A stretch of DNA of 64,000 bases from Bacteroidales bacterium (GTDB lineage: Bacteria > Bacteroidota > Bacteroidia > Bacteroidales > UBA10428), in contig JBGSSF010000033.1 in NCBI GenBank assembly GCA_041737175.1, forward strand, positions 8,849-72,848, given 5' to 3'. A model generated the notes under the pieces. The model worked only from the letters and a program-made list of their open reading frames with translations, did no database searches and was not told the DNA's origin. A program made the position numbers and the translations under genes. Positions 7,824-61,054 of this stretch are shown here, one piece after another; position 1 is the first letter of the stretch; each line of letters begins with the position of its first letter.

Positions 7824-10800
7824 TCATCGGCCCGTTACTTTTAAAACCTGCAGGGCGTCGTTATTTCTGGCGATCAGCAGTATCTTTCCGGTTGGGGTGG
7901 TCACTTGCATGATATCACGGATCTCACCCCGAAGATAAATTCCAGATAATTTTGGCGGAACCAGGCTGAATTCACCTTGGCCGTTACCCAACAAAAGTGA
8001 TCCGTAACCAGCGTCGTATCGTCCCACCTCCGGTTTGACATTGTACAGATTACCCCCCAGCAATATGTCCGGTTTGCCATCACCGTTATAATCACTCACA
8101 TCTGCCGCATAAACCGGTGAGAACTGGACTTCTGCTGACAGTGATTTACGCGTAAATTGCCCTGTACCATCATTGATAAAGAGGGAAGTCTCCAGCATAG
8201 ATACCTCCAGGTGAACGGAATTCTTTAATTGTTCCGGTGTAAATACATCCGTAATCTGCTGGTCTTTGTATAGCTCATACTTGGGATATTTTTGCGCGAG
8301 TGCCGGGATCTGCCCCACCAGATCATGTTTTAAAACCAGCGGATAGGATTGGTCACCGTCATAGGTGCAAATGATCTGCTCCGCGCTGCCGTTCAGGTCA
8401 AAGTCATTGATGTACATACCTACCGGTTTTTCAGGAGAGGCCTTGAACCTGGAATTCAACCCGTGGTTCCCGGCAATGAAATCCATATCGCCATCAGAGT
8501 CGAAATCTCCGGCAGCCAGGCAATTCCACCAGCCCTCCGTTTTTTCGGATCCGAAGGCGTCCTTCTTTTCCGAAAAACGGTTATTCTCATTCAAAAAAAC
8601 TTTCAGGGGCATCCATTCGCCTGCCAGGATCATATCCTGGTCTCCGTCCCCGTCCACGTCTTCCCAGAGCATATCGCGGACCATGCCAACATCCTTCAAT
8701 TCAGGCGCAATCTGTTGGGTTACATTGGTGAATTTACCTTTTCCGTCATTCTCCAGAATGTAGGATGTGACAGGCACGCCATACAGGAAGGGCTTGAGCC
8801 GGATACCGACAAACAATTCCATCACACCGTCGTTGTCAAAATCCTGCGCGCGAACACAAGACGTGCTTTCATATTTCCCGGCCGGCAGGACCTGCTTTGA
8901 TTTCTCAAAATGTCCTTTACCGTTGTTCATATACAAACGATCGGCCAATGCTGAAGAACTCTCCGGAAATTCATTGCTTCCGCTGGCAACATACAAATCG
9001 TTATCACCGTCCCCGTCGGCATCAAAAAGAGCGCAATCCGTGTCTTCTGAAATCTTATCTTCTTCAAACAAAGATTTATCAACTGGTTCAAAAGTGCCAT
9101 TCCTGCGCTGTATCATCAGTTCACCGGGTTGTTCTTTGGCTCCGCCTATAAAAATATCATCCAGACCGTCTCCGTTCACATCCCCCCGGCACATGCGCGG
9201 TCCCTCGGTCGACATCATGTGATAGATCAGCTTATCGCGTTCGAAATCGTTGAAGTCATCCTCGCGATGGACGAACTTGATTCTGTTTTCGACGCTTATG
9301 TCTTTAAAATATTTATTTTCATAGGTTTTCTGTCCTGTTTTTGCCGGAGATGCTGCAACAGCATCTTTCTGATGCAGGGTTAAAACCTGGTTGGTTTCCA
9401 CATTCGTCAGCAGGGTGACCCTGTCATCGGGCCACACAACAACCAGGGAATCCACCATGGTCAGGGAGCCCAGGCCGGCATTGGGACGGGGATCCACGGT
9501 GGATAAATAACCCCGCATGGGCATTTGTTCGAGGTATATCAGTTTGCCTTTATGCCGGATGGTCACTTTGGCTCCGAGGGCATCGGTGTTTCCGGGTTCT
9601 CCCTTAAGTATCAGTTTCAGATAACGATTTTCCGGAAACTGCCGGCTGGTCTCATTGCGGTAAACAAACATGGGCATGTTGACATTATTTACCACAAGGT
9701 CCAGGTCCCCGTCATTATCCAGGTCCCCGTAGGCAGAACCATTGGAAAAGCTGGGCGTATCAAGTCCCCAGTCAGCCGCTGTATTTTCGAACCGGTAATC
9801 CCCCAGGTTTTTAAAAGCGTAACTCGGAATCTTCACCGAAGGAATAGCATCGATCAGGGTCTTGTAATCCACATTATTGCCGGATATCACGGACATGACC
9901 ATATCGCGGTTTGAAAAATACTGAATATAATCCTGGTCGGTGAGGTCCTTGTAAATGCCATTGGCCACAAAGAGATCTTTCAATCCGTCATTATCAAGAT
10001 CCATGATCAGCGCGCCCCACGACCAGTCGGTGGCATTAACGCCGGCAAATCTCCCGATCTCGCTGAAAGTGCCATCCGTATTGTTCAGCTGCAGCATATT
10101 GCGGGTGAACTGGTAATAGTAATCATTTTCCACATAGGCTTTATAGCCCTCCCAGTTATCAAAAGTCGTTTTTGTTTTCAGGCGGTCGTTGTGTTCAGGG
10201 ACCATGTCGGTGGCAAAGATCTCCGGATAATGATCGTTGTTGATATCCGCCATATCTGCACCCATGGAGGCAGCGGAAATCGATGGCATCATCGCGGTGA
10301 GGCATTCCCGGAAGGTTCCGTCATGGTTGTTGATATACAGGTAATCCCGTTCGAAAAAATCATTGGATACATAGATGTCCATCCATCCGTCCTGATCCAA
10401 ATCCCCGACGGTGACACCCAGTCCGAAACTGATCACGCTGCCATAAATGCCTGCTTCCAGGCTAACATCCGTAAATTTTCCGCCATCGTTGCGGAACAGA
10501 TTATCTCCACCGAGAGAATCTCTCACCATGCGCTGATTAACCTTCAGGTTAAAACTGCCGATGGCTTTGGAATAATTGTTCAGCAAATACAGGTCGAGGT
10601 CGCCGTCCTTGTCATAATCAAAGAAAACACCCTGCGTGGAATTCCCGGTACCACCAATGCCATATTTTTCCGCCTGTTCCGTAAAGGTCATGTCACCATT
10701 ATTGATATACAAATTATTCCGGTTGGCTTCACCGGGCAGGTTACCGGAATTACACACATAGATATCCGTCCATCCGTCTCCGTTCACATCGGCAAGGCTA

Positions 10801-21306: not shown

Positions 21307-24117
21307 TTACTCCTCTTCCGCCTCCCGGATAAGAAATTCCGTGAGATTAACTTTGTGATCAAGACGCATTTTACGGCGTAGGCGGTAACGGCCAATTTCC
21401 ACCGCCCGTCCCGAAATGTTGAGGAGCTGGGCTATTTCCTTGGTGGTGAAATTCATCCGCAGGTAAGATGATAAACGAAGATCGTTGGGTGTGAGGTCGG
21501 GGAATTTTTCCTTGAGTTTCCGGAAGAAACCTTCCTGGGAAAGCTTGAGATTGTTCATGGTATTCTTCCATTCCTCGGTCTGTGAATCCAGGCCTTCATT
21601 AATGATCCGCTCCATTTCCCTGACAAACTTGACCGGATATTTGGAGGAATCTGTTTTCATCGAGTTGATTTGCGTCTGAAGCTCTTTCAGGATTTCTGTT
21701 TTTCGGATCAGGTAACGCATGGTCAGCATCAATTCATAACTCTTATAATCAAGCTCACTCTCCAGCTTATTTTTACGGACCTCATATTCAATGAGCTGAC
21801 GATGGCGGTTGAGTTCAATTGCAAAGATCCTGCGACTAAGCAGGATTAATCCGGCCAACGCCAGGATGTAAAACACAAGCGCTACGATGCTCAGATACCA
21901 GGGCCTTTTAATTGTAAATACCGTTTCAGCGATTTCCTCACCGGTGGCAGAACGTACCTGTAAAAGATAAGTTCCGAATTTCAGTTTCAGAAAGGTGAAA
22001 TTATCCAGAATGGTTCGATGCCAGGTTTCATCGAGATCAGGGATCCTGTAAAGGAATTCCTTATCATCCAGATCAAAATGCGAAGGATCAGCCAGATATA
22101 CTGTGAGGTTATTCTGATCATTCGGAACAACGCTTTTTTTTGAAGTTTGAGGCAGAATCACCTTTGTTTTTGATTTCCCGCTGAATACCAGGCGGACCAT
22201 GACAGGAGCTTTTGTTACTTCTTTTCCATAACGGCGGGCCAGACTGAAAGTAGTAAATGCCTGTCGGGTGGGTATCATCATGGAATTCCCGTCAAGTCTT
22301 ACAATCTGTTGTTCACGGTTGGGAAGATCTGCGTACTTTTGGATTAACTCAGTTATTTTACTTGCTTCAAAAGATTTTGAAATATCAAAAAGGGCGATCT
22401 TGTTTTCAAGCATGAACCAGTAGCTGTTTTTATCATGATGACTGATCTGGGTAGCCTTTATGTATTCGCCCAGGCCGGCCTGTAGTGAGGCCAATGGATA
22501 AAAGGACAGGCTTTCATTGTCAAAGGAATAAATGTTGGATCCTGTCATGAACACAACCTGGTTATTGAGCATGGAAATGCTGTTTTTGGCAGAACTGTCA
22601 GCAATGGCATTGAAATGAAGCGTGTTCAGCACAGAATCTGCTCCTTCGTTAAGCTCAAGCCTGTAGATTCCTTTTTGCGGATGGATGGCCCATACATATC
22701 CCAGGTAATCCACTTCGACATACCGGGTAGGTTCATAAAATCCTTCAACCCTGTCCCGGAAACTCCAATCACCGGCATTGTCTTTCCTGAAGCTGACAAT
22801 GCCTGTATATGTCCCCTCGAGAAGCAGGTCATTGTATCCCGCAAAGCACCACCCACCGGTTACTTCTGAGATTTTCCGGATGGTCTGTTGTTTCACCAGG
22901 AAGGTGCCATCGTTGTGTCCGCAAAGGATCTGATCTCCGAATTCAAAGAGTTTCCATACCTGGCCCTGGGTATTCGGAATCATTCTCAGGTTGGAAAAAA
23001 TGTAATCACTGTTGTCCTCCCTGATATCGGCAACAAAGAGTCCATGATTCGTACCGAGGTACAGCAGGTCATTTTTCCGGACAATGGTATAAACAGTGCC
23101 GAGGATCCCGTCCCTGTCCGTAAATAGCTTGAAAGGAGAGGTTGTGTTGATGTAATTTGCTCCTTCATCGAGACCTATCCATAATCCCTGGTTGTCATCC
23201 CTGTAAAGCGAAAGGACCGTGTTGTTATTTAACCCGCCGGCAGAGTTAAACAGCTTCGTAATTTTTCCCCGATCATCACAAAAGACAATTCCATTGAGGA
23301 TCGTTCCGAAGACAAAAAGGGAATCATGTATGGCCAGACCTGCGTTGCAGGTCTGCAGTTTTAAGAAGCGGGAAACCGGGGTTTCAAGCAAGGAAAATGA
23401 TTGGCCGTCATACTGATAGATACCGTCGTTCGCTGTGCATATCCAAAATGTGCCATCCTTTTTTTCAATAATCGCATGTACTTTCAGGGTACCGAAAACC
23501 TGACTGCCTTCCAAAAGATCGAACCGCTTGCCGTCAAACCAAAACAAACCCCTGCCAAGAGCCTGAACTACAAATCCTTGACTAACCCTGAACATGAATA
23601 GCATTACTGCAGGTCCGCGGATGCTTTTAACCCGGTTTCCGGCATAGGCATATATCGTGGTAAACGATTGAAAATAAATGGTTCCTTCTTTTTCCAGGAT
23701 ATTCCAGATCTCATCGTTCTTCTCAACACGGATTTCCCGGGTGAGTGAGTGGTAGGCTAGTCCGCCCCGTCCGTCATTTTCCCAAAAACCGAAATCTTCG
23801 AATGATCCGCTGTAGATGATACCGGAAGAATCGGCATATACCGACCGGACTCCCTGCCTGAAAGGCAAGGCGAATACCCTTGAACTGATGCCATTGAACT
23901 CAACCAATCCTGCCGAGTTGGCAAAATACACGAAACCAGTCACCGGACTCCGGCTGATTTCCCAGTTCTGGTTTTCAAGCGGCAGATGATTCGAAATTTT
24001 TGTCTGGAGGATGTCATTCTGAAAAAGATCCTGTGCGTGAATGCCAACCCCGGTGATCAGTTGAAGTGATGCGAACAAACTTAACCATCTGTTTAGAAAA
24101 ACTTTACAGCCGGGCAT
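21307..24117 (-). CDS. Membrane-tethered one-component regulator: periplasmic beta-propeller/Y_Y_Y-type sensor, one TM helix, C-terminal LuxR-type HTH
   Basis: Signal peptide, then ~700 aa of repetitive propeller-like sequence (GLWIGLDEG, LYLGTNHGLF). A single TM (WYLSIVALVFYILALAGLILL) is followed by a coiled-coil-like linker and a GerE/LuxR HTH (LTPNDLRLSSYLRMNFTTKEIAQLLNISGRAVEIGRYRLRRKM). No histidine-kinase or receiver motifs are present. Confidence 0.8.
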   Translation of the reverse strand: MPGCKVFLNRWLSLFASLQLITGVGIHAQDLFQNDILQTKISNHLPLENQNWEISRSPVTGFVYFANSAGLVEFNGISSRVFALPFRQGVRSVYADSSGIIYSGSFEDFGFWENDGRGGLAYHSLTREIRVEKNDEIWNILEKEGTIYFQSFTTIYAYAGNRVKSIRGPAVMLFMFRVSQGFVVQALGRGLFWFDGKRFDLLEGSQVFGTLKVHAIIEKKDGTFWICTANDGIYQYDGQSFSLLETPVSRFLKLQTCNAGLAIHDSLFVFGTILNGIVFCDDRGKITKLFNSAGGLNNNTVLSLYRDDNQGLWIGLDEGANYINTTSPFKLFTDRDGILGTVYTIVRKNDLLYLGTNHGLFVADIREDNSDYIFSNLRMIPNTQGQVWKLFEFGDQILCGHNDGTFLVKQQTIRKISEVTGGWCFAGYNDLLLEGTYTGIVSFRKDNAGDWSFRDRVEGFYEPTRYVEVDYLGYVWAIHPQKGIYRLELNEGADSVLNTLHFNAIADSSAKNSISMLNNQVVFMTGSNIYSFDNESLSFYPLASLQAGLGEYIKATQISHHDKNSYWFMLENKIALFDISKSFEASKITELIQKYADLPNREQQIVRLDGNSMMIPTRQAFTTFSLARRYGKEVTKAPVMVRLVFSGKSKTKVILPQTSKKSVVPNDQNNLTVYLADPSHFDLDDKEFLYRIPDLDETWHRTILDNFTFLKLKFGTYLLQVRSATGEEIAETVFTIKRPWYLSIVALVFYILALAGLILLSRRIFAIELNRHRQLIEYEVRKNKLESELDYKSYELMLTMRYLIRKTEILKELQTQINSMKTDSSKYPVKFVREMERIINEGLDSQTEEWKNTMNNLKLSQEGFFRKLKEKFPDLTPNDLRLSSYLRMNFTTKEIAQLLNISGRAVEIGRYRLRRKMRLDHKVNLTEFLIREAEEE

Positions 24118-24166
24118 GCCATCATTTTTTTGTCATCCGGGTAAAAGTACAAAAAAATGAGTATGA

Positions 24167-24306
24167 GATTTAAGATCTAAGATTCAAGATTTAAGATCTA
24201 AGATTCAAGATTTAAGATCTAAGATTCAAGATTCAAGATCTAAGATTCAAGATTTAAGATCTAAGATTCAAGATCTAAGATTCAAGATTCAAGATCCGTG
24301 ATCCGT
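24167..24306. repeat. Heptamer tandem array, 18 x GATYYAA plus 2 x GATCCGT
   Basis: I counted the units directly: GATTTAA/GATCTAA/GATTCAA in the order T C A T C A T C A A C A T C A C A A, then GATCCGT twice. There is a partial 21-bp higher-order period. The array lies 12 nt after the stop of the 24319-25677 gene and 49 nt before the ATG at 24117. Confidence 0.95.
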
Positions 24307-24318
24307 GAAACAGGCAGG

Positions 24319-25677
24319 TTAGTCTTTTACAGTGAATCCCAATCTTTTCAAACCGGTCCTGATTTCCGGGGTTGCCATAAACAGATTCCAGAGCAGGGCA
24401 CTCCGGTAATTCTCGATCATGACCACGATGGGTCCCTGGTCGATGGCCAGGTACCTTTTGGGATACCAGTTCATTTCGATGCTGAATCCATCATAGAATC
24501 CATAAATACCCCAAATGCTGTCTCCCAGCTCATGGTAAAAATGCCGAAGCGCTTTCATGGATTCTTCGGGTGTATAGGGAAAGGATGATAAGGCAGCCGA
24601 AGGGGTGATCACCCCAAGGTCATTTTTCTCTCCCGGTGCATGGGCAGCATAACCCATGGGGGAATAACCTGCGGTGAGACCCCAGCAGGAATCGCTGTAG
24701 CCGGCATGACCCAGGGTATTCTCTTTGCACCATTGCCAGTTGATAAGTGCCAGGTTTCGGTTCAGTTCGATGTAATCGGCGTATCTGTCACTGATCTTCC
24801 AGGGATCCAGTCCCAGGTAGGAGTAATGCGCCCAGAACAACGGTCCGCCGTATTCCTCCGCATAGTTGTATTTAAGGATCAGGGGATGACCATACATTTG
24901 ATTCGTAGAAATCATTCCTCCGCTACGTGCCCATCCTTCGTGATAGGCAGCCGGATCAACGGGATGTGTAGGTGAAGATGCCGCCAGAACATAGGTGATC
25001 AGGCACTCATTGTAACCTTCAATGGGGAAGTTCATTTCCCAGCCGTAGTTGGGGGACCAGTGCCAGTATATTACAGGCTTGCCGCCCTGGGTGAACCAGT
25101 TCCATTCGACCTCCCGCCAAAGCCTGTCAATTTTGCCGGCCAGCGTCTTTTCCGCTTCAGTGCCGCTTTTAAGATATTCACGTACGGTCAGCAATCCCTG
25201 GATTAGGTAAGCTGTTTCAACGATATCGGCACCATTGTCTTTTGGACTGAAAGGTTTGACGCGTCCGGTTTCTCCGTAGAGCCAATGCGGCCAGGCCCCA
25301 TGAAACCTGTCGGATGTTTCCAGAAAATCCACAATACGTTTCAGGCGCTTATAAGCTTCCTGCCGGGTAATAAATCCCCGTTCAATTCCAACCAGGATTG
25401 CCATCAGGCCAAAACCCGTGCCCCCCGTGGTTACTACATTCATATCATTTTCGGGATATACGCCATCGACATGATAGCGCTCACGGGCCATACCCGAATT
25501 GGATTCTGCGCCGTCCCAGAAATACTGAAAGGTCCGGTATTCGGTAAGTGTAAGCAGCGAATCATCGGTTATTCTGGTTTCGACTTTATCGTAAACTGCT
25601 ACGGATATGTTCCTTGTAGTTTTGCAGCTACTCCAGAGCAATCCGGTTAGCAGAAACAGTATCAGAATTTTTTTCAT
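24319..25677 (-). CDS. GH144-like 'putative glucoamylase' family (alpha/alpha)6 glycoside hydrolase, lipoprotein
   Basis: Lipobox LWSSC. Motif string FQYFW...SGMARER...TTGGTGFGLMAILVGIERGFITRQEA...FHGAWPHWLYGETG...DIVETAYLIQGLL, as in Bacteroides 'putative glucoamylase' proteins related to endo-beta-1,2-glucanases. The family call is by recollection of motifs, not by search. Confidence 0.65.
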   Translation of the reverse strand: MKKILILFLLTGLLWSSCKTTRNISVAVYDKVETRITDDSLLTLTEYRTFQYFWDGAESNSGMARERYHVDGVYPENDMNVVTTGGTGFGLMAILVGIERGFITRQEAYKRLKRIVDFLETSDRFHGAWPHWLYGETGRVKPFSPKDNGADIVETAYLIQGLLTVREYLKSGTEAEKTLAGKIDRLWREVEWNWFTQGGKPVIYWHWSPNYGWEMNFPIEGYNECLITYVLAASSPTHPVDPAAYHEGWARSGGMISTNQMYGHPLILKYNYAEEYGGPLFWAHYSYLGLDPWKISDRYADYIELNRNLALINWQWCKENTLGHAGYSDSCWGLTAGYSPMGYAAHAPGEKNDLGVITPSAALSSFPYTPEESMKALRHFYHELGDSIWGIYGFYDGFSIEMNWYPKRYLAIDQGPIVVMIENYRSALLWNLFMATPEIRTGLKRLGFTVKD

Positions 25678-33438: not shown

Positions 33439-33563
33439 ATGTCGCACCTACGGCGCTTTTTTGTGGGATCACAACAATTTTTTCTACCGTAATGTCGCAC
33501 CTCTGGTGCTTATCAACCGGATCACAACAATTTTTTCTACCGTAATGTCACATCTACGGCGCT
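33439..33563. repeat. 53-bp tandem direct repeat, ~2.4 copies
   Basis: The unit is ATGTCGCACCTACGGCGCT + ~8 nt + GGATCACAACAATTTTTTCTACCGTA, with copies starting at 33439, 33492 and 33545. The 37-nt cores at 33466-33502 and 33519-33555 differ at 2 positions. Copy 2 carries a perfect GCACC-TCT-GGTGC hairpin. Confidence 0.85.
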
Positions 33564-33585
33564 TTCATTTAAGATATATCGATTT

Positions 33586-45133: not shown

Positions 45134-46429
45134 ATGATATATTTTGAGCAGGGATCCGAAAATACAGTTCTGTCAGACAGTGATCTGAAGAAGGGACTGT
45201 TCAGTGCTCTTGACAAACTGGGAAAACGGGAAAAGGTGCTGGCCATTCCCCCCGACTTTACCCGTTTTCATTCTCATGCCGGGGAGCTCACTTCAATGTT
45301 GTACGAATATTACGGCGATAAGCTGACAGATGTACTTCCGGCGTTGGGAACCCATTCACCCATGACGCCGGATCAATTGAGCGCCATGTTTCCGGGCATA
45401 CCGGAAGAGCTCTTCAGAGTGCATTACTGGCGCAGTGATGTTCTCACTTTAGGAAGAGTTCCGGGGGACTATATTGCCGAGATTACCGATAATGCCCTGA
45501 ATTACGATTGGCCGGCCCAGCTGAATAAACTGGTTTGCCAGGGCGGGCACGATCTGATATTGTCCCTGGGACAGGTTGTTCCCCACGAGGTCATCGGAAT
45601 GGCCAACTATAACAAGAATCTTTTTGTTGGTACCGGAGGAGCCGAGGGTATCAACAAAAGCCACTTTGTGGGCGCTGTTTATGGAATGGAACGCATGATG
45701 GGCCGGGCAGATAATCCGGTGCGGAAAATACTCAATTATGCATCATCACATTTTATAAGTGACCTGCCCGTTGTATATGTGCATACCGTTGTAGGCAGAG
45801 ATGACAATGAGAACCTGGTGGTGAGGGGCCTTTATATCGGGGATGATGAACAGGTTTTCACCCGTGCTGCCGACTTATCACTCAAGGTGAATTTCACCGT
45901 GCTTGATAAACCGGTCAAAAAGGTAGTCGTCTACCTCGATCCTGCAGAATTTAAAAGCACATGGCTGGGCAATAAAAGCATTTACCGCACCCGGATGGCC
46001 ATTGCGGATGGAGGTGAACTTCTGGTGCTTGCCCCGGGAGTGAAGGAATTCGGGGAAGACCCGGAGATCGACCAGTTGATCAGGAAGTACGGGTACTTTG
46101 GAACCGCGGAAACTCTTCAGAACCTGAAAGAAAACAAGGACCTGGAGGGTAACCTCAGTGCAGCCGCCCATCTTATTCATGGCAGTTCCGAAGGCAGGTT
46201 CACCATCACCTATTGTCCCGGTCACCTGACCAAGCGGGAAATCGAAAAGGTGAATTTCAGGTACGGTTCCCTGAAGAATATGCTCGTGAAGTACAATCCG
46301 GCAAGCATGAAGGAAGGCTACAATTTGCAGGAGGACGGTGAAGTGGTCTTTTATATTTCCAATCCTGCGCTAGGGCTTTGGGCTTGTAAGGAGAGGCTGC
46401 AGACCAAAGACCTAAGTCCAAAGGCCTAA
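45134..46429 (+). CDS. LarA-like (DUF2088 / lactate-racemase N-terminal domain) protein, putative nickel-pincer-dependent 2-hydroxyacid epimerase
   Basis: 431 aa, the size of the LarA family. Has an N-terminal PPDFTRFHS (D-x-T-R) motif, VVPHEVIGMANYNKN, and a GTGGAEGINKSH Gly-rich/Lys-His region. The last 9 codons and the stop are encoded by the heptamer array at 46401-46477. Confidence 0.55.
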   Translation: MIYFEQGSENTVLSDSDLKKGLFSALDKLGKREKVLAIPPDFTRFHSHAGELTSMLYEYYGDKLTDVLPALGTHSPMTPDQLSAMFPGIPEELFRVHYWRSDVLTLGRVPGDYIAEITDNALNYDWPAQLNKLVCQGGHDLILSLGQVVPHEVIGMANYNKNLFVGTGGAEGINKSHFVGAVYGMERMMGRADNPVRKILNYASSHFISDLPVVYVHTVVGRDDNENLVVRGLYIGDDEQVFTRAADLSLKVNFTVLDKPVKKVVVYLDPAEFKSTWLGNKSIYRTRMAIADGGELLVLAPGVKEFGEDPEIDQLIRKYGYFGTAETLQNLKENKDLEGNLSAAAHLIHGSSEGRFTITYCPGHLTKREIEKVNFRYGSLKNMLVKYNPASMKEGYNLQEDGEVVFYISNPALGLWACKERLQTKDLSPKA

Positions 46430-46477
46430 GACTAAAGACCAAAGACCAAAGACCAAAGACCTAAGACGAAAGGCGAA
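46401..46477. repeat. Heptamer tandem array, 11 x AGNCNWA (consensus AGACCAA)
   Basis: Units counted directly: AGACCAA AGACCTA AGTCCAA AGGCCTA AGACTAA AGACCAA AGACCAA AGACCAA AGACCTA AGACGAA AGGCGAA. The array contains the TAA stop (46427-46429) of the LarA-like gene and ends 51 nt before the MFS ATG. Confidence 0.95.
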
Positions 46478-46528: not shown

Positions 46529-47923
46529 ATGACAACAATCTCCGAGCAAATCGGAAAATACCGATGGACGATCTGCACCCTTGTATTTTTTGCTACCACA
46601 GTTAACTATTTTGATCGCAATGTTTTGGGACTTTTGAAGCCCATCCTGTCTGATGCAGGTATGTTCGGCGCGGACAAACCCAACCAGGAGTTGTATTATT
46701 CCTATGTGGTGATGAGTTTTCAGATTGCTTACGCTATTGGCATGCTGCTGGCAGGAAGGCTTATCGACTGGTTCGGGACAAGAAAAGGATATGCCTTTTC
46801 ATTGCTGGGATGGAGCATTGCTGCCATAGGCCACGCCCTCGCCCAGAATACCTTTACATTTGGTTTTTGGCGGGCCGCGCTGGGTTTTACCGAATCAGGC
46901 AATTTCCCGGCAGCCAACAAGACCATGGCAGAATGGTTTCCGAAGAAGGAAAGGGCATTTGCCACAGGTATTTATAATTCCGGCGCCAATGTGGGTGCCA
47001 TCGTTACTCCGTTGTTTGTTCCCTGGATGGCCAGGGAATGGGGATGGCAATGGGCTTTTATTTTTGTGGGTGCCATCGGTCTGATCTGGCTGTATTTCTG
47101 GTTTCGCATTTATGGTTCACCTGAACAAAAGCTGAAAGCAGGCGTTCTTTCGCAGGCAGAATATGATTATATTCACAGCGACCTGGATGAGCAGGCTGAA
47201 GAGAAAAAAAGCGGCGACAAGGTATCATGGTTTAAGCTTCTGACCTATCGCCAGACCTGGTCATTCTTTTTTGGAAAATTTCTGACTGACGGGGTATGGT
47301 GGTTCTATCTTTTCTGGCTTCCAGCTTTTCTGAGTGGTGAAAACACCCGGAAAATCCAGGAATACATGGCAGCTCATCCGGATTTCACAGGCGATCAGTC
47401 CGCCGTACCGGGGATTATCAGCTGGACCCTGGCGGTAGCTGTGGTTTACACGATTTCAACCATTGGTTCGGTCTATGGAGGTTGGCTTCCCAAAAGATTC
47501 ATTAATAATGGAATGGCTGCGTACAAAGCGCGTAAAACATCCATGTTTATTTATGCTTTATTTCCGCTTACCGTATTGTTAGCCAGCAGGCTGGGCCATA
47601 TTAACACATGGTATGCAGTTCTCGTCATTGGTATTGCCTGCGCAGCTCACCAGGCCTGGTCGGCAAACATTTTCACCACGGTCACCGATATGTTCCCCAA
47701 AAGGGCCGTGGCATCTGTCACCGGCATTGGGGGAATGGCGGGAGCTGTAGGTGGCATACTGATCGCACAGTCAGCCGGGCTGATTTTGAAACATTATTCA
47801 GCGCTCGGAAATATCCAGGCAGGCTACGGGTACCTGTTCATCTTCTGCGGAATTGCCTACATCGCAGCCTGGCTCCTCATGCATTTTATGGTGCCTAAAT
47901 TAAAGCGCGTTGAAAATTTGTAA
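46529..47923 (+). CDS. MFS transporter, ExuT-like hexuronate transporter (anion:cation symporter subfamily)
   Basis: 464 aa, 12 TM helices. The N-terminal FFATTVNYFDRNVLG motif is typical of the ACS/ExuT family. Located immediately upstream of uxaC. Confidence 0.75.
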   Translation: MTTISEQIGKYRWTICTLVFFATTVNYFDRNVLGLLKPILSDAGMFGADKPNQELYYSYVVMSFQIAYAIGMLLAGRLIDWFGTRKGYAFSLLGWSIAAIGHALAQNTFTFGFWRAALGFTESGNFPAANKTMAEWFPKKERAFATGIYNSGANVGAIVTPLFVPWMAREWGWQWAFIFVGAIGLIWLYFWFRIYGSPEQKLKAGVLSQAEYDYIHSDLDEQAEEKKSGDKVSWFKLLTYRQTWSFFFGKFLTDGVWWFYLFWLPAFLSGENTRKIQEYMAAHPDFTGDQSAVPGIISWTLAVAVVYTISTIGSVYGGWLPKRFINNGMAAYKARKTSMFIYALFPLTVLLASRLGHINTWYAVLVIGIACAAHQAWSANIFTTVTDMFPKRAVASVTGIGGMAGAVGGILIAQSAGLILKHYSALGNIQAGYGYLFIFCGIAYIAAWLLMHFMVPKLKRVENL

Positions 47924-59151: not shown

Positions 59152-59823
59152 CTATTTCTTATACTTTTTGGCTATTTCAAGTACTTTTTTACAGGTGTCT
59201 GTAATTTGACCGAAATCACCGCTTTCAATCCATGATTTTACGAAGAGCTGCGAGCCCATGCCTACACAGGCTGCTCCTGCCTGAAACCAGGCCTTTAGAT
59301 TCTCTTCAGAGGTGTCAACGCCACCGGTTGGCATGATATGTGTCCAAGGCATCGGACCTTTCATAGCTTCAATGAACTTTGGTCCGCCCACCTGGCTCCC
59401 CGGAAATATTTTAACGATCTCGGCACCGAGCTCTTCAGCCCGGGAGATTTCCGATATCGATCCGCATCCGGGAGACCAGAGAATCTTACGCCGGTTGCAT
59501 ACTTTGGCCATATCCTCATTCAGAACCGGCGATACAATAAAAGCAGCTCCCAGCTGGATATAGAGGGAAGCTGTCCCTGCTTCCACAACCGAACCCGCAC
59601 CCATGATCATCCCGGGCAATTCCTGGGCAGCATACTTGTTCAGATCTCTGAAAACCTCATGGGCGAAATCGCCCCGGTTGGTGAATTCAAAAACCCTGAT
59701 GCCGCCTTCATAACAGGCTTTCAGCACGTTTTTACAGGTCATCAGATCTTTGTGATAAAACACAGGTATAATACCTGTTTCTAGCATGGTGGTGGCTACC
59801 TGGAGACGGGAGAAGAGGGGCAT
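59152..59823 (-). CDS. eda: 2-dehydro-3-deoxyphosphogluconate / 4-hydroxy-2-oxoglutarate aldolase
   Basis: 223 aa. Typical Eda blocks GIIPVFYH, GIRVFEFTNR, VSPVLN, the Schiff-base Lys context (VKIFPG), and MPTGGV. Confidence 0.88.
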   Translation of the reverse strand: MPLFSRLQVATTMLETGIIPVFYHKDLMTCKNVLKACYEGGIRVFEFTNRGDFAHEVFRDLNKYAAQELPGMIMGAGSVVEAGTASLYIQLGAAFIVSPVLNEDMAKVCNRRKILWSPGCGSISEISRAEELGAEIVKIFPGSQVGGPKFIEAMKGPMPWTHIMPTGGVDTSEENLKAWFQAGAACVGMGSQLFVKSWIESGDFGQITDTCKKVLEIAKKYKK

Positions 59824-59851
59824 AGCAGTATGATTTAAGTTTGCAGTTTGA

Positions 59852-60023
59852 GGTTGTATGTTGTATGTTGTGGTTGTTGTGATTGTTGTGGTTGTTGTGA
59901 TTGTTGTGGTTGTTGTGGTTGTTGTGATTGTTGTGGTTGTTGTGATTGTTGAAATGGTTATACCTACAGCCTATAGCCTATAGCCTATAGCCTATAGCCT
60001 ATAGCCTATAGCCTATAGCCTAT
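59852..60023. repeat. Composite tandem array: ~10 x 9-mer TGRTTGTTG followed by 8 x heptamer CCTAYAG
   Basis: 59871-59951 holds nine exact-length 9-mers alternating TGGTTGTTG/TGATTGTTG, preceded by degenerate units from 59852. 59963-60018 holds CCTACAG then 7 x CCTATAG, and a partial unit supplies the kdgK stop codon (CTA at 60020-60022). On the transcribed strand this reads (CTATAGG)n(CAACAAYCA)n. Confidence 0.95.
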
Positions 60024-61054
60024 CTCGCTACTCTCCCCGATGCATCCCCTCCCATCAGCTTCTCCACTTCCTCCACCGATACGAGGTTAAAATCACCCGG
60101 TATGGTGTGTTTCAGGCAGGAGGCGGCCACCGCGAAATTCAGGGCTTTCTGGTCATCACCCGGGTAAGTAATCAATCCGTAAATCAATCCACCCATGAAT
60201 GAATCACCTCCACCTACGCGGTCCACGATGTGCGTGATGTCATAGGTCGGAGCCTGTAAAAGTCTTTTTCCATCCCACAGCACACCGCTCCAGGTATTGT
60301 GGCTGGCGCTGATTGATCCGCGAAGCGTAATGATCACCTTTTTGGACTTTGGGAACTTTTGCATCAGCTGCCGGCAGACAGATTCATAGGCCGATGCTTC
60401 AACGTGTCCGCCGGTAACATTCCCATGATCCGGTTTAATGCCGAATACCTTCTCCGCATCTTCTTCGTTGCCGAGGATAATGTCACAGCCGGCAACCAGA
60501 TCAGGCATCACTTCAGAAACTTTTTTTCCGTATTTCCAGAGGTTCTTTCTGTAATTCAGATCAGTTGAAACCGTGATCCCCTTTTTGCCGGCAGCCTGAA
60601 TGGCTTCCAGGCATACCTTTGCCGTTCCTTCGGCAATGGCCGGAGTGATACCGGTCCAGTGAAACCAGGAAACGCCGTCAAATGCCATTTCCCAATCGAT
60701 CATTCCCGGCTGAATGGTGGCAATGGAGGAATGTGCACGGTCGTAAATGACTTTGCTGGCCCGGGCCACAGCACCACTCTCGAGGAAGTAAATGCCCAGG
60801 CGTTCGCCGCCATAAGCAATTTTTCCGGTGCCCACGCCATATCTTTTTAATTCCATTACACACGCCTGTGCCAAATCGTTTTGCGGCAGGCGGGTAATAA
60901 AATCCACCGGAATGCCGAAATTGGCCAGAGATACGGCCACGTTGGCCTCACCACCGCCAAACTGGATGTTGAATTGCCGCGATTGGGAGAATCTTTCATA
61001 ACCCGGTGTGGAAAGCCGGAGCATGATCTCACCGAAAGTGATAACCTTGGTCAT
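60020..61054 (-). CDS. kdgK: 2-dehydro-3-deoxygluconokinase (PfkB family)
   Basis: N-terminus VITFGEIMLRLSTPGYERFSQSRQFNIQFGGGEANVAVSLANFG is the KdgK hallmark. C-terminal PfkB motif DRVGGGDSFMGGLIYG. Located upstream of eda. Confidence 0.9.
   Translation of the reverse strand: MTKVITFGEIMLRLSTPGYERFSQSRQFNIQFGGGEANVAVSLANFGIPVDFITRLPQNDLAQACVMELKRYGVGTGKIAYGGERLGIYFLESGAVARASKVIYDRAHSSIATIQPGMIDWEMAFDGVSWFHWTGITPAIAEGTAKVCLEAIQAAGKKGITVSTDLNYRKNLWKYGKKVSEVMPDLVAGCDIILGNEEDAEKVFGIKPDHGNVTGGHVEASAYESVCRQLMQKFPKSKKVIITLRGSISASHNTWSGVLWDGKRLLQAPTYDITHIVDRVGGGDSFMGGLIYGLITYPGDDQKALNFAVAASCLKHTIPGDFNLVSVEEVEKLMGGDASGRVAR

Follow-up and report, generated by a model that had tools for sequence, protein, structure and literature searches.

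Simple sequence repeats (SSRs) that render genes phase-variable in Haemophilus, Neisseria and Helicobacter have units of 1–5 nt, are located inside open reading frames (ORFs) or between the −35 and −10 promoter elements, and switch expression. Heptamer arrays have been described at the ends of bacterial genes, with GGGAATC as the unit in Xanthomonas and GGGGAYT in Nostoc PCC 7120; they are rare between divergent ORFs and lie at most 50 bp from a stop codon, some of them overlapping it, and in Xanthomonas the array length differs between X. campestris pv. campestris (Xcc) and X. axonopodis pv. citri (Xac) (Rehm et al. 2015, PMC4692102). Long SSRs, with units of 5–11 nt, were surveyed by Mrazek, Guo and Shah in 2007 and, in the summaries given in PMC4679880 and PMC4692102, are most commonly heptamers of sporadic phylogenetic distribution and intergenic location, for which polymerase slippage was proposed. 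Direct repeats of TAACTGA occur in marine Beggiatoaceae, some Cyanobacteria and five Bacteroidetes (MacGregor 2015, PMC4679880). Here, we describe an array of 20 heptamers at positions 24167–24306 of a 64,000-nt stretch of Bacteroidales DNA (the window), which corresponds to positions 8849–72848 of contig C31 (JBGSSF010000033.1) in assembly GCA_041737175.1 (genome G000; 4.32 Mb in 36 contigs, 44% G+C, 97.6% complete). The relatives of this genome are uncultured Bacteroidales metagenome-assembled genomes (MAGs). The array separates a GH144-like gene from the gene of a regulator of a polysaccharide utilization locus (PUL).

Like the arrays of Rehm et al. (PMC4692102), those of the present genome are built of 7-nt units placed head-to-tail, number in the hundreds, occupy intergenic DNA, lie close to or over stop codons with the G-rich strand as the coding strand, include some inverted pairs, and keep their gene context between close species while varying in length and sequence. 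Whereas those hosts have one G-rich unit, the unit families number in the dozens in the genome studied here, from an uncultured Bacteroidales genus, and have periods of 7, 8 or 9 nt; most units cannot form G-quadruplexes, and the focal array is not G-rich on its sense strand (22 C and 18 G). The prevalence of heptamers, intergenic location and sporadic distribution are shared with the long SSRs, and the focal array, with its 20 units, has their near-perfect head-to-tail repetition of a 5–11-nt unit; the cited summaries of the 2007 survey describe neither stop-codon anchoring, nor a fixed orientation of each family, nor a link to S23p genes, all three of which are found here. With the TAACTGA repeats and the short tandemly repeated repetitive (STRR) heptamers of cyanobacteria the arrays have in common the intergenic location, stop triplets, strain-specific change and the occurrence of long arrays in a few Bacteroidetes. 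The TAACTGA sets, however, mostly comprise 2–6 copies directly upstream of start codons in forward orientation, whereas the present arrays are longer and anchored at stop codons. Phase-variable SSRs are likewise copy-number-labile tandem repeats beside genes, but the focal array has a 7-nt unit and is located past a stop codon, with the promoter core downstream of it, and not inside an ORF or between promoter hexamers. The original prediction, made from the sequence of the window, held that such arrays are not an ordinary bacterial feature, which is overstated given the intergenic stop-proximal heptamer SSRs already on record (PMC4692102, PMC4679880). On balance, the focal array is probably a solo, non-coding member of this known class, expanded by slippage or unequal exchange and exerting at most a spacer effect.

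Structure and authenticity of the focal array

By direct count the 20 head-to-tail heptamers comprise eight GATTCAA, six GATCTAA, four GATTTAA and two GATCCGT units, exactly as first described, and on the plus strand they belong to the unit family AAGATYN. Tandem Repeats Finder (TRF) reported a period of 7 with 18.6 copies at 24166–24295 (score 162), GATCCGT in 2.3 copies at 24293–24308, and a 21-bp super-period with 95% match (score 232), in agreement with the super-period noticed earlier. The order of the units is (TTA-CTA-TCA)x3, TCA-CTA-TCA, TTA-CTA-TCA, CTA-TCA, TCA. On the minus strand, which is the transcribed one, the units read CTTGAAT, CTTAGAT and CTTAAAT, and the stop triplet predicted for every unit does close all three frames, in every 21 nt. 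The GATCTAA units had been said to create GATC/AGATCT sites, and eight GATC and six AGATCT sites were counted. Recounting also bore out the position of the array, which begins 12 nt past the stop codon of the GH144-like gene and ends 49 nt before the ATG of the regulator gene.

That the array is an assembly artefact is hardly credible. Such an origin could be suspected because the Logan contigs of four sequencing runs (X1–X4) all end inside the array, either on the window allele or on a short sister allele, and because 24 arrays, of 7–9-nt and other periods, are found at contig ends of the assembly (e.g. C23:1–128, C25:89801–89926 and C34:1–142). The figure of 18 units is the value of the assembly, the Logan contigs (k = 31) being broken within the array; one 906-nt contig of run X2 has 291 nt in place of 368 nt. 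However, the array recurs at the same position and between the same flanks in a MAG that was assembled independently from another site, and contigs of the four runs enter the array from both sides, so the array is not an artefact. In addition, a 46-nt unitig within the array has ∼2.5 times the flanking depth, which is consistent with the assembled repeat order. An exact-protein look-up of the GH144-like gene returned solely the contig of the source run, which ends in the array, and public RNA runs held at most 7% of the sampled words.

The end of contig C25 and the start of contig C23 share one octamer, AGTCTTGC, and we therefore take such arrays to be a main cause of breaks in this assembly.

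The array is lineage-specific and changes in length between sister species

The order of the GH144-like gene and the regulator gene is conserved in 10 species of the genus. The spacer between them is 201 nt long in the window, with 18.6 units followed by GATCCGT x2, and 104 nt in the nearest species (MAG JAFGGU01, G014; 91% amino acid identity), with 4.6 units and the same GATCCGT pair. In G031 (71% amino acid identity) it measures 92 nt and contains only CCTGATT x2, and in the seven other congeners it measures 37–67 nt and contains no tandem repeat. Between the window and G014 the linker next to the stop codon, the GATCCGT pair and the downstream junction are identical, and the G014 units read TTA-CTA-TCA-TCA, so the same gene context is retained with arrays of different length (18.6 versus 4.6 units) between identical flanks. 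The variability in copy number that had been suspected is thus real, and it extends to all three arrays noted in the window.

About 25–35 nt before the regulator ATG, all 10 species have a T-run and a TAnnTTTAY box. The Bacteroidota −7 promoter consensus is TAnnTTTG, and from this likeness we presume the box to be the −7-type promoter element of the regulator gene. In several species it begins 0–1 nt past the GH144 stop codon; in the window 10 nt separate the array from the T-run and box downstream of it, and the array is wholly outside the conserved element. Because the more distant congeners keep the gene pair and the box without the array, the array is lineage-specific and dispensable for the regulator, as well as labile and outside the promoter core. 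The same comparison indicates that it has changed through duplication or deletion of blocks of one to three units.

The array probably arose in the common ancestor of the G000 species and its nearest sister, in the sole permissive slot of a spacer of originally 37–67 nt between the GH144 stop codon and the TAnnTTTAY box. Growth from about 4 to about 18 units probably proceeded by slipped-strand mispairing or unequal exchange in steps of 7, 14 and 21 nt, which would account for the TTA-CTA-TCA higher-order repeat, and loops of at least 7 nt would escape mismatch repair, which would explain the bias toward periods of 7–9. The GH144 message probably includes the array as its 3′ tail, and the array would have no role in promoter spacing and at most a spacer effect on the regulator.

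The original prediction had proposed that the array could be a spacer of variable copy number that tunes the promoter of the PUL regulator. In the form considered here, the array would be a promoter-upstream element with phased curvature (21 bp corresponding to two helical turns), or an UP-like or protein-binding platform, whose length sets transcription as in a rheostat or contingency locus. An SSR rheostat is reportedly known in H. pylori, and several features would suit such a device: the array ends close enough to the T-run and box to cover the −33 region and beyond, its 21-nt repeat is regular, and copy number differs four-fold between the sister species. However, the seven congeners use the same box, with the GH144 stop codon 0–40 nt upstream of it and no array, and a change in unit number leaves the −33 to −7 spacing unaltered. 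The AAGATYN family is, moreover, found at about 20 other loci, mostly past stop codons and not upstream of promoters; its presence at so many unrelated gene ends argues against a regulator-specific operator. We therefore regard a tunable element of this kind as improbable, and with arrays in about 290 intergenic regions of this genome the focal one is not a device peculiar to the PUL regulator.

The sister-species comparison could be extended beyond the focal junction. An 85-kb contig of G014 is syntenic to C31 with about 90–92% identity, and every array of the window is present in it but different. The array at 46401 has about 10 units in the window and 3–5 units of a different type in G014, so the C-terminal tail of the protein encoded by the ORF at 45134–46429 differs between the species. 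The composite array at 59848–60023 is made of the same three blocks in both genomes, in 2.7, 10 and 9 copies in the window and in 9.7, 3 and 4.6 copies in G014. Among 20 orthologous array sites in about 400 kb of G014 sequence, one was identical, one array (171 bp) was precisely absent and 18 differed in copy number or unit type, often also in the dominant unit (e.g. the 9-mer GTTGTGGTT versus the 7-mer GTTGTAT). This turnover looks like differential amplification from a shared library of units.

Stop-anchored arrays across the genome

In the whole genome, TRF identified 555 tandem arrays, including 209 of period 7, 101 of period 8 and 48 of period 9, and periods of 5 or less were almost absent. 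The 358 arrays of period 7–9 (∼83 per Mb) are composed of only 96 canonical units. Their placement was assessed with crude ORF calls (3290 ORFs, 92% of the genome), and only 23 of them were inside called ORFs, nearly all being intergenic. Occupancy is 16–18% for convergent spacers, about 8% for co-directional spacers and 7% for divergent spacers, the last being the least occupied per base. Of 180 co-directional spacers, 145 have the array closer to the upstream stop than to the downstream start (p = 4e-17); the gaps have medians of 2 nt on the stop side and 54.5 nt on the start side, and in 44% of the 180 the array overlaps the stop codon. The non-random position at cistron junctions that was proposed from three loci is therefore a property of the genome as a whole, and the three loci of the window are typical of the array-bearing spacers. 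The two further arrays of the window had been placed at upstream stop codons, and the stops indeed lie inside 46401–46472 and 59959–60023; the latter is that of the minus-strand ORF at 60020–61054, and the next gene starts at 59823.

Within the genus, 12 of 35 genomes contain arrays built of AAGACTGC, which were absent from all 26 other genera sampled. Arrays of AAGATYN were sporadic, being present in 11 of 167 Bacteroidales genera, and arrays of a control heptamer were found in other genomes. The flanks of arrays with the same unit have no sequence in common, so a mobile element with conserved flanks, of the type of MITEs (miniature transposable elements with inverted repeats), was rejected. 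Synthesis of the repeats by a reverse transcriptase was also rejected, as there was no PF00078 match in the 97.6% complete genome.

Two further arrangements were seen among the arrays. In convergent spacers (e.g. C13:70184–70381, C29:329137 and C34:39577), a (GTAAACA)n array faces a (TGTTTAC)n array from the opposing gene, each being sense to its own gene and the two together forming long potential hairpins. A 20-nt GC palindrome, CCYGCCTGCCGGCRGGCAGG, lies inside or at the edge of 7–8-nt arrays in three of its seven genomic copies (C2:100447, C4:66009 and C14:48108) and inside an array in G014 too.

Recurrent units and strand polarity

Because unit types recur, strands are polarized and S23p genes are associated with the arrays, local slippage alone does not account for the class, and the following observations weigh against the account of the focal array given above. 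The same units are found at unrelated loci, AAGGGAC, ACAGCCT and AAACAGT at 20 each, AAGACTGC at 18 and AAGATYN at about 20. With arrays oriented according to the gene at whose stop codon they lie, the majority strand of the family is followed in 187 of 207 (simulations, 153 ± 4, maximum 167), and the sense strand contains more G than C in 170 arrays and more C than G in 33 (p = 2e-23). In its own orientation the focal array belongs to the minority of its family, which usually follows the stop codon in the AAGATYN sense; at the focal locus the AAGATYN strand is antisense to the GH144-like gene. The match of the G-rich strand with the coding strand, which holds genome-wide (170 versus 33), is thus not found at the focal array. 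To these observations are added the bracketing of S23p genes by arrays of the same unit families and the replacement of whole post-stop spacers in the sister species by other arrays or S23p cassettes, both described below.

In stop-abutting arrays the sense strand is poor in C (A 525, G 453, T 399 and C 170), whereas in array-free DNA past stop codons C and G are equal at 0.19. If the arrays are placed so that the G-rich strand is the upper one, they are bordered by a sense-oriented stop on the 5′ side in 164 of 186 cases and by an antisense stop on the 3′ side in only 35 of 146.

An RNA-level role in the 3′ untranslated region (UTR) was weighed against these numbers, in which the array would form a wall of stop codons, act as a signal for RNA stability or processing, or insulate the regulator from the PUL operon transcript. 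The stop triplet in each focal unit is what such a role would call for, and in the genome 116 of 207 stop-abutting arrays close all frames on the sense strand versus 41 on the antisense strand; arrays that overlap a stop codon are, moreover, necessarily in the 3′ UTR. However, where all frames are closed in neither orientation (81 arrays), the sense strand remains the C-poor one, in 64 arrays versus 16, so stop-triplet content is not the main driver of polarity, and the abundant families AAGGGAC and GCAGTCTT have no stop triplets on either strand. The junctions of the congeners have no equivalent of the array. At the focal locus, the 201-nt gap between the GH144 stop codon and the regulator ATG (24118–24318) contains no intrinsic terminator (hairpin and U-tract), no Rfam covariance model matched either strand of 23800–24700 at E ≤ 1, and the sense RNA folds only weakly, through self-pairing of AGAUCU (z = −2.1). 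The processing or stability element that had been put forward is not borne out by these searches, and an RNA-level function of the array seems to us very unlikely.

S23p cassettes flanked by the same unit families

A profile search of the genome identified 12 genes of the S23p family (23S_rRNA_IVP, PF05635), a protein to which no function has been assigned (PMC4990558). For nine or ten of the 12, arrays of 7–10 nt flank the gene on either side at a distance of at most 150 nt, mostly inverted with respect to each other, compared with a background of 51 among 3290 genes (P about 2e-17). The resulting cassettes resemble the IVS (intervening sequence) in the 23S rRNA of Coxiella burnetii (PMC4990558), in which an S23p gene occupies the loop between inverted arms; unlike the latter, they are located past the stop codons of protein-coding genes and their arms are tandem arrays. 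The cassette at C1:34031–34730 is composed of a stop codon (TGA), (AAGATCG)17, (ATCTTAG)11, the S23p gene and (TCTTAGA)13.6, and its arms belong to the focal unit family (AAGATCG, AAGATCT and AAGATCC). The S23p proteins are mutually 13–48% identical except for two close pairs (90% and 74%), which have the same or related arm units, the arms of other pairs being different. Among solved structures, the nearest are 2GSC (Xanthomonas campestris XCC0516) and 2RLD (Bacteroides thetaiotaomicron), with five chains each.

Seven of the S23p genes are inserted, each with long flanking arrays of 7–9 nt, among housekeeping genes at C10:2200–27300 (a wecB-like epimerase gene, serB, ribE, ileS, lspA, metG, dxr, rseP and purF). 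One cassette separates dxr from rseP; its 5′ arm begins at the dxr stop codon and includes it.

Three S23p cassettes of G014 (L050, L051 and L055) are missing from the orthologous junctions of G000 (C2:51806–52115, C10:110016–110132 and C29:112525–112755), where a different array or a hairpin directly follows the stop codon. This amounts to replacement of the whole post-stop spacer between genomes that are ∼91% identical.

These findings raise the possibility that IVS-like cassettes, composed of a repeat arm, an S23p ORF and an inverted arm, insert past stop codons and that solo arrays are leftovers or recognition or homology sites. For the focal array this would mean an origin as a solo arm or relic, or a role as trans-target, within an AAGATCN-armed lineage of this system. 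Besides the bracketing statistics and the missing G014 cassettes, this would fit the C1 cassette, which starts at a stop codon with arms of the focal family, the sharing of arm units by the sole close pairs of S23p proteins, the existence of a cognate cassette for most major solo families, and an S23p gene of genome G013 that lies 69 nt from an AAGATCY array. However, unlike IVS elements, the focal array has no inverted partner arm within 700 nt and no S23p gene; none of the 12 PF05635 genes is on contig C31, and the GH144–regulator junction is free of cassettes in all 10 congeners. Only 29–41 of 353 arrays have an inverted partner within 700 nt, and some abundant families (ACAGCCT and AAATGTGC) have no cassette in this genome. 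No reverse transcriptase was found, and the link is a correlation. For the focal array, derivation from an S23p cassette is therefore conceivable but rather unlikely, and membership in the stop-proximal SSR class remains the preferred reading.

In a more general and equally tentative form, which we consider doubtful, the roughly 350 stop-anchored arrays, the focal one included, would be cis-elements of a protein–repeat system in which each divergent S23p four-helix-bundle protein is paired with its own unit. The IVS-like cassettes would insert, be swapped and decay at the post-stop junction, and solo arrays would be their footprints or landing pads.

Features of the junction and of the window

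The coordinates of the array, its flanking genes and the sibling arrays are collected in Table 1.

Table 1. Features at the GH144–regulator junction and sibling arrays in the window
Feature	Position	Strand	Basis or remark
18 heptamers arranged as a 21-nt higher-order repeat (TTA-CTA-TCA)	24167..24292	.	TRF, unit count, sister species
GATCCGT x2 mini-array at the stop-proximal end, unchanged in sister species	24293..24306	.	TRF, unit count
Unique 12-nt linker from stop codon to array, cctgcctgtttc on the minus strand	24307..24318	-	Sequence
GH144-like putative glucoamylase (PF10091, E = 7.8e-78), stop TAA at 24319–24321	24319..25677	-	Profile match
936-aa membrane-anchored Reg_prop (PF07494) and GerE/LuxR helix-turn-helix regulator, downstream gene	21307..24117	-	Profile match
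T-run and TAnnTTTAY box TTTTTTTGTACTTTTAC, presumptive −7-type promoter element of the regulator	24141..24157	-	Kept in all 10 species with the gene pair
Perfect 12-bp A/T inverted repeat TCATTTTTTTGT-N15-ACAAAAAAATGA around the TAnnTTTAC box, ending 4 nt before the regulator ATG	24122..24160	-	RNA fold
Sibling array, AGACCAA-type x10.3	46401..46472	+	Encodes the last 9 codons and TAA of the ORF at 45134–46429; next ORF starts at 46529
Sibling composite array, (GTTGTAT)2.7, (TTGTGRTTG)∼10 and (CCTATAG)9	59848..60023	-	Holds the stop of the ORF at 60020–61054

The A/T inverted repeat around the box is retained with one G-U pair in G014 and approximately in G031, and its sequence and position would suit an operator or a leader hairpin of the regulator gene. 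A scan for sigma-70 promoters gave a single weak sigma-70-like match, on the wrong strand. The sequence 'cctgcctg' next to the stop codon was considered as half of a GC palindrome, CCTGCCTGCCGGCAGGCAGG, and rejected; with 7 full copies versus more than 200 half-sites in the genome, it is taken as a chance occurrence. A significance of the GATC sites for Dam methylation was likewise rejected, as GATC has an observed/expected ratio of 1.05 in the genome and the sites are those of one unit variant.

The tetranucleotide CTAG is strongly under-represented in the genome (752 observed versus about 2126 expected from trinucleotides). At 33439–33565 of the window, TRF reported a 53-bp tandem repeat in 2.4 copies with 79% match, the period of which is unrelated to the heptamer class.

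Significance

At the level of the locus, the PUL regulator is probably not under exotic iteron or spacer control, and the array can be annotated as a hypervariable SSR. At the level of the genome, the analysis describes an unusually rich and diverse set of stop-anchored, polar arrays of 7–9 nt in Bacteroidales, in which single unit families, e.g. TAACTGA, were reported previously. It also provides quantitative support for two unexplained properties of the class: the strand polarity relative to the abutting gene and the library-like turnover between sister species. In practical terms, arrays of this kind break short-read assemblies and alter protein tails at the C terminus. The statistical association with S23p genes is a testable handle on the origin of the class, and the S23p system, if correct, would give the heptamer repeats of bacteria (STRR, long SSRs and the GGGAATC arrays of Xanthomonas) a mechanism and a protein partner.

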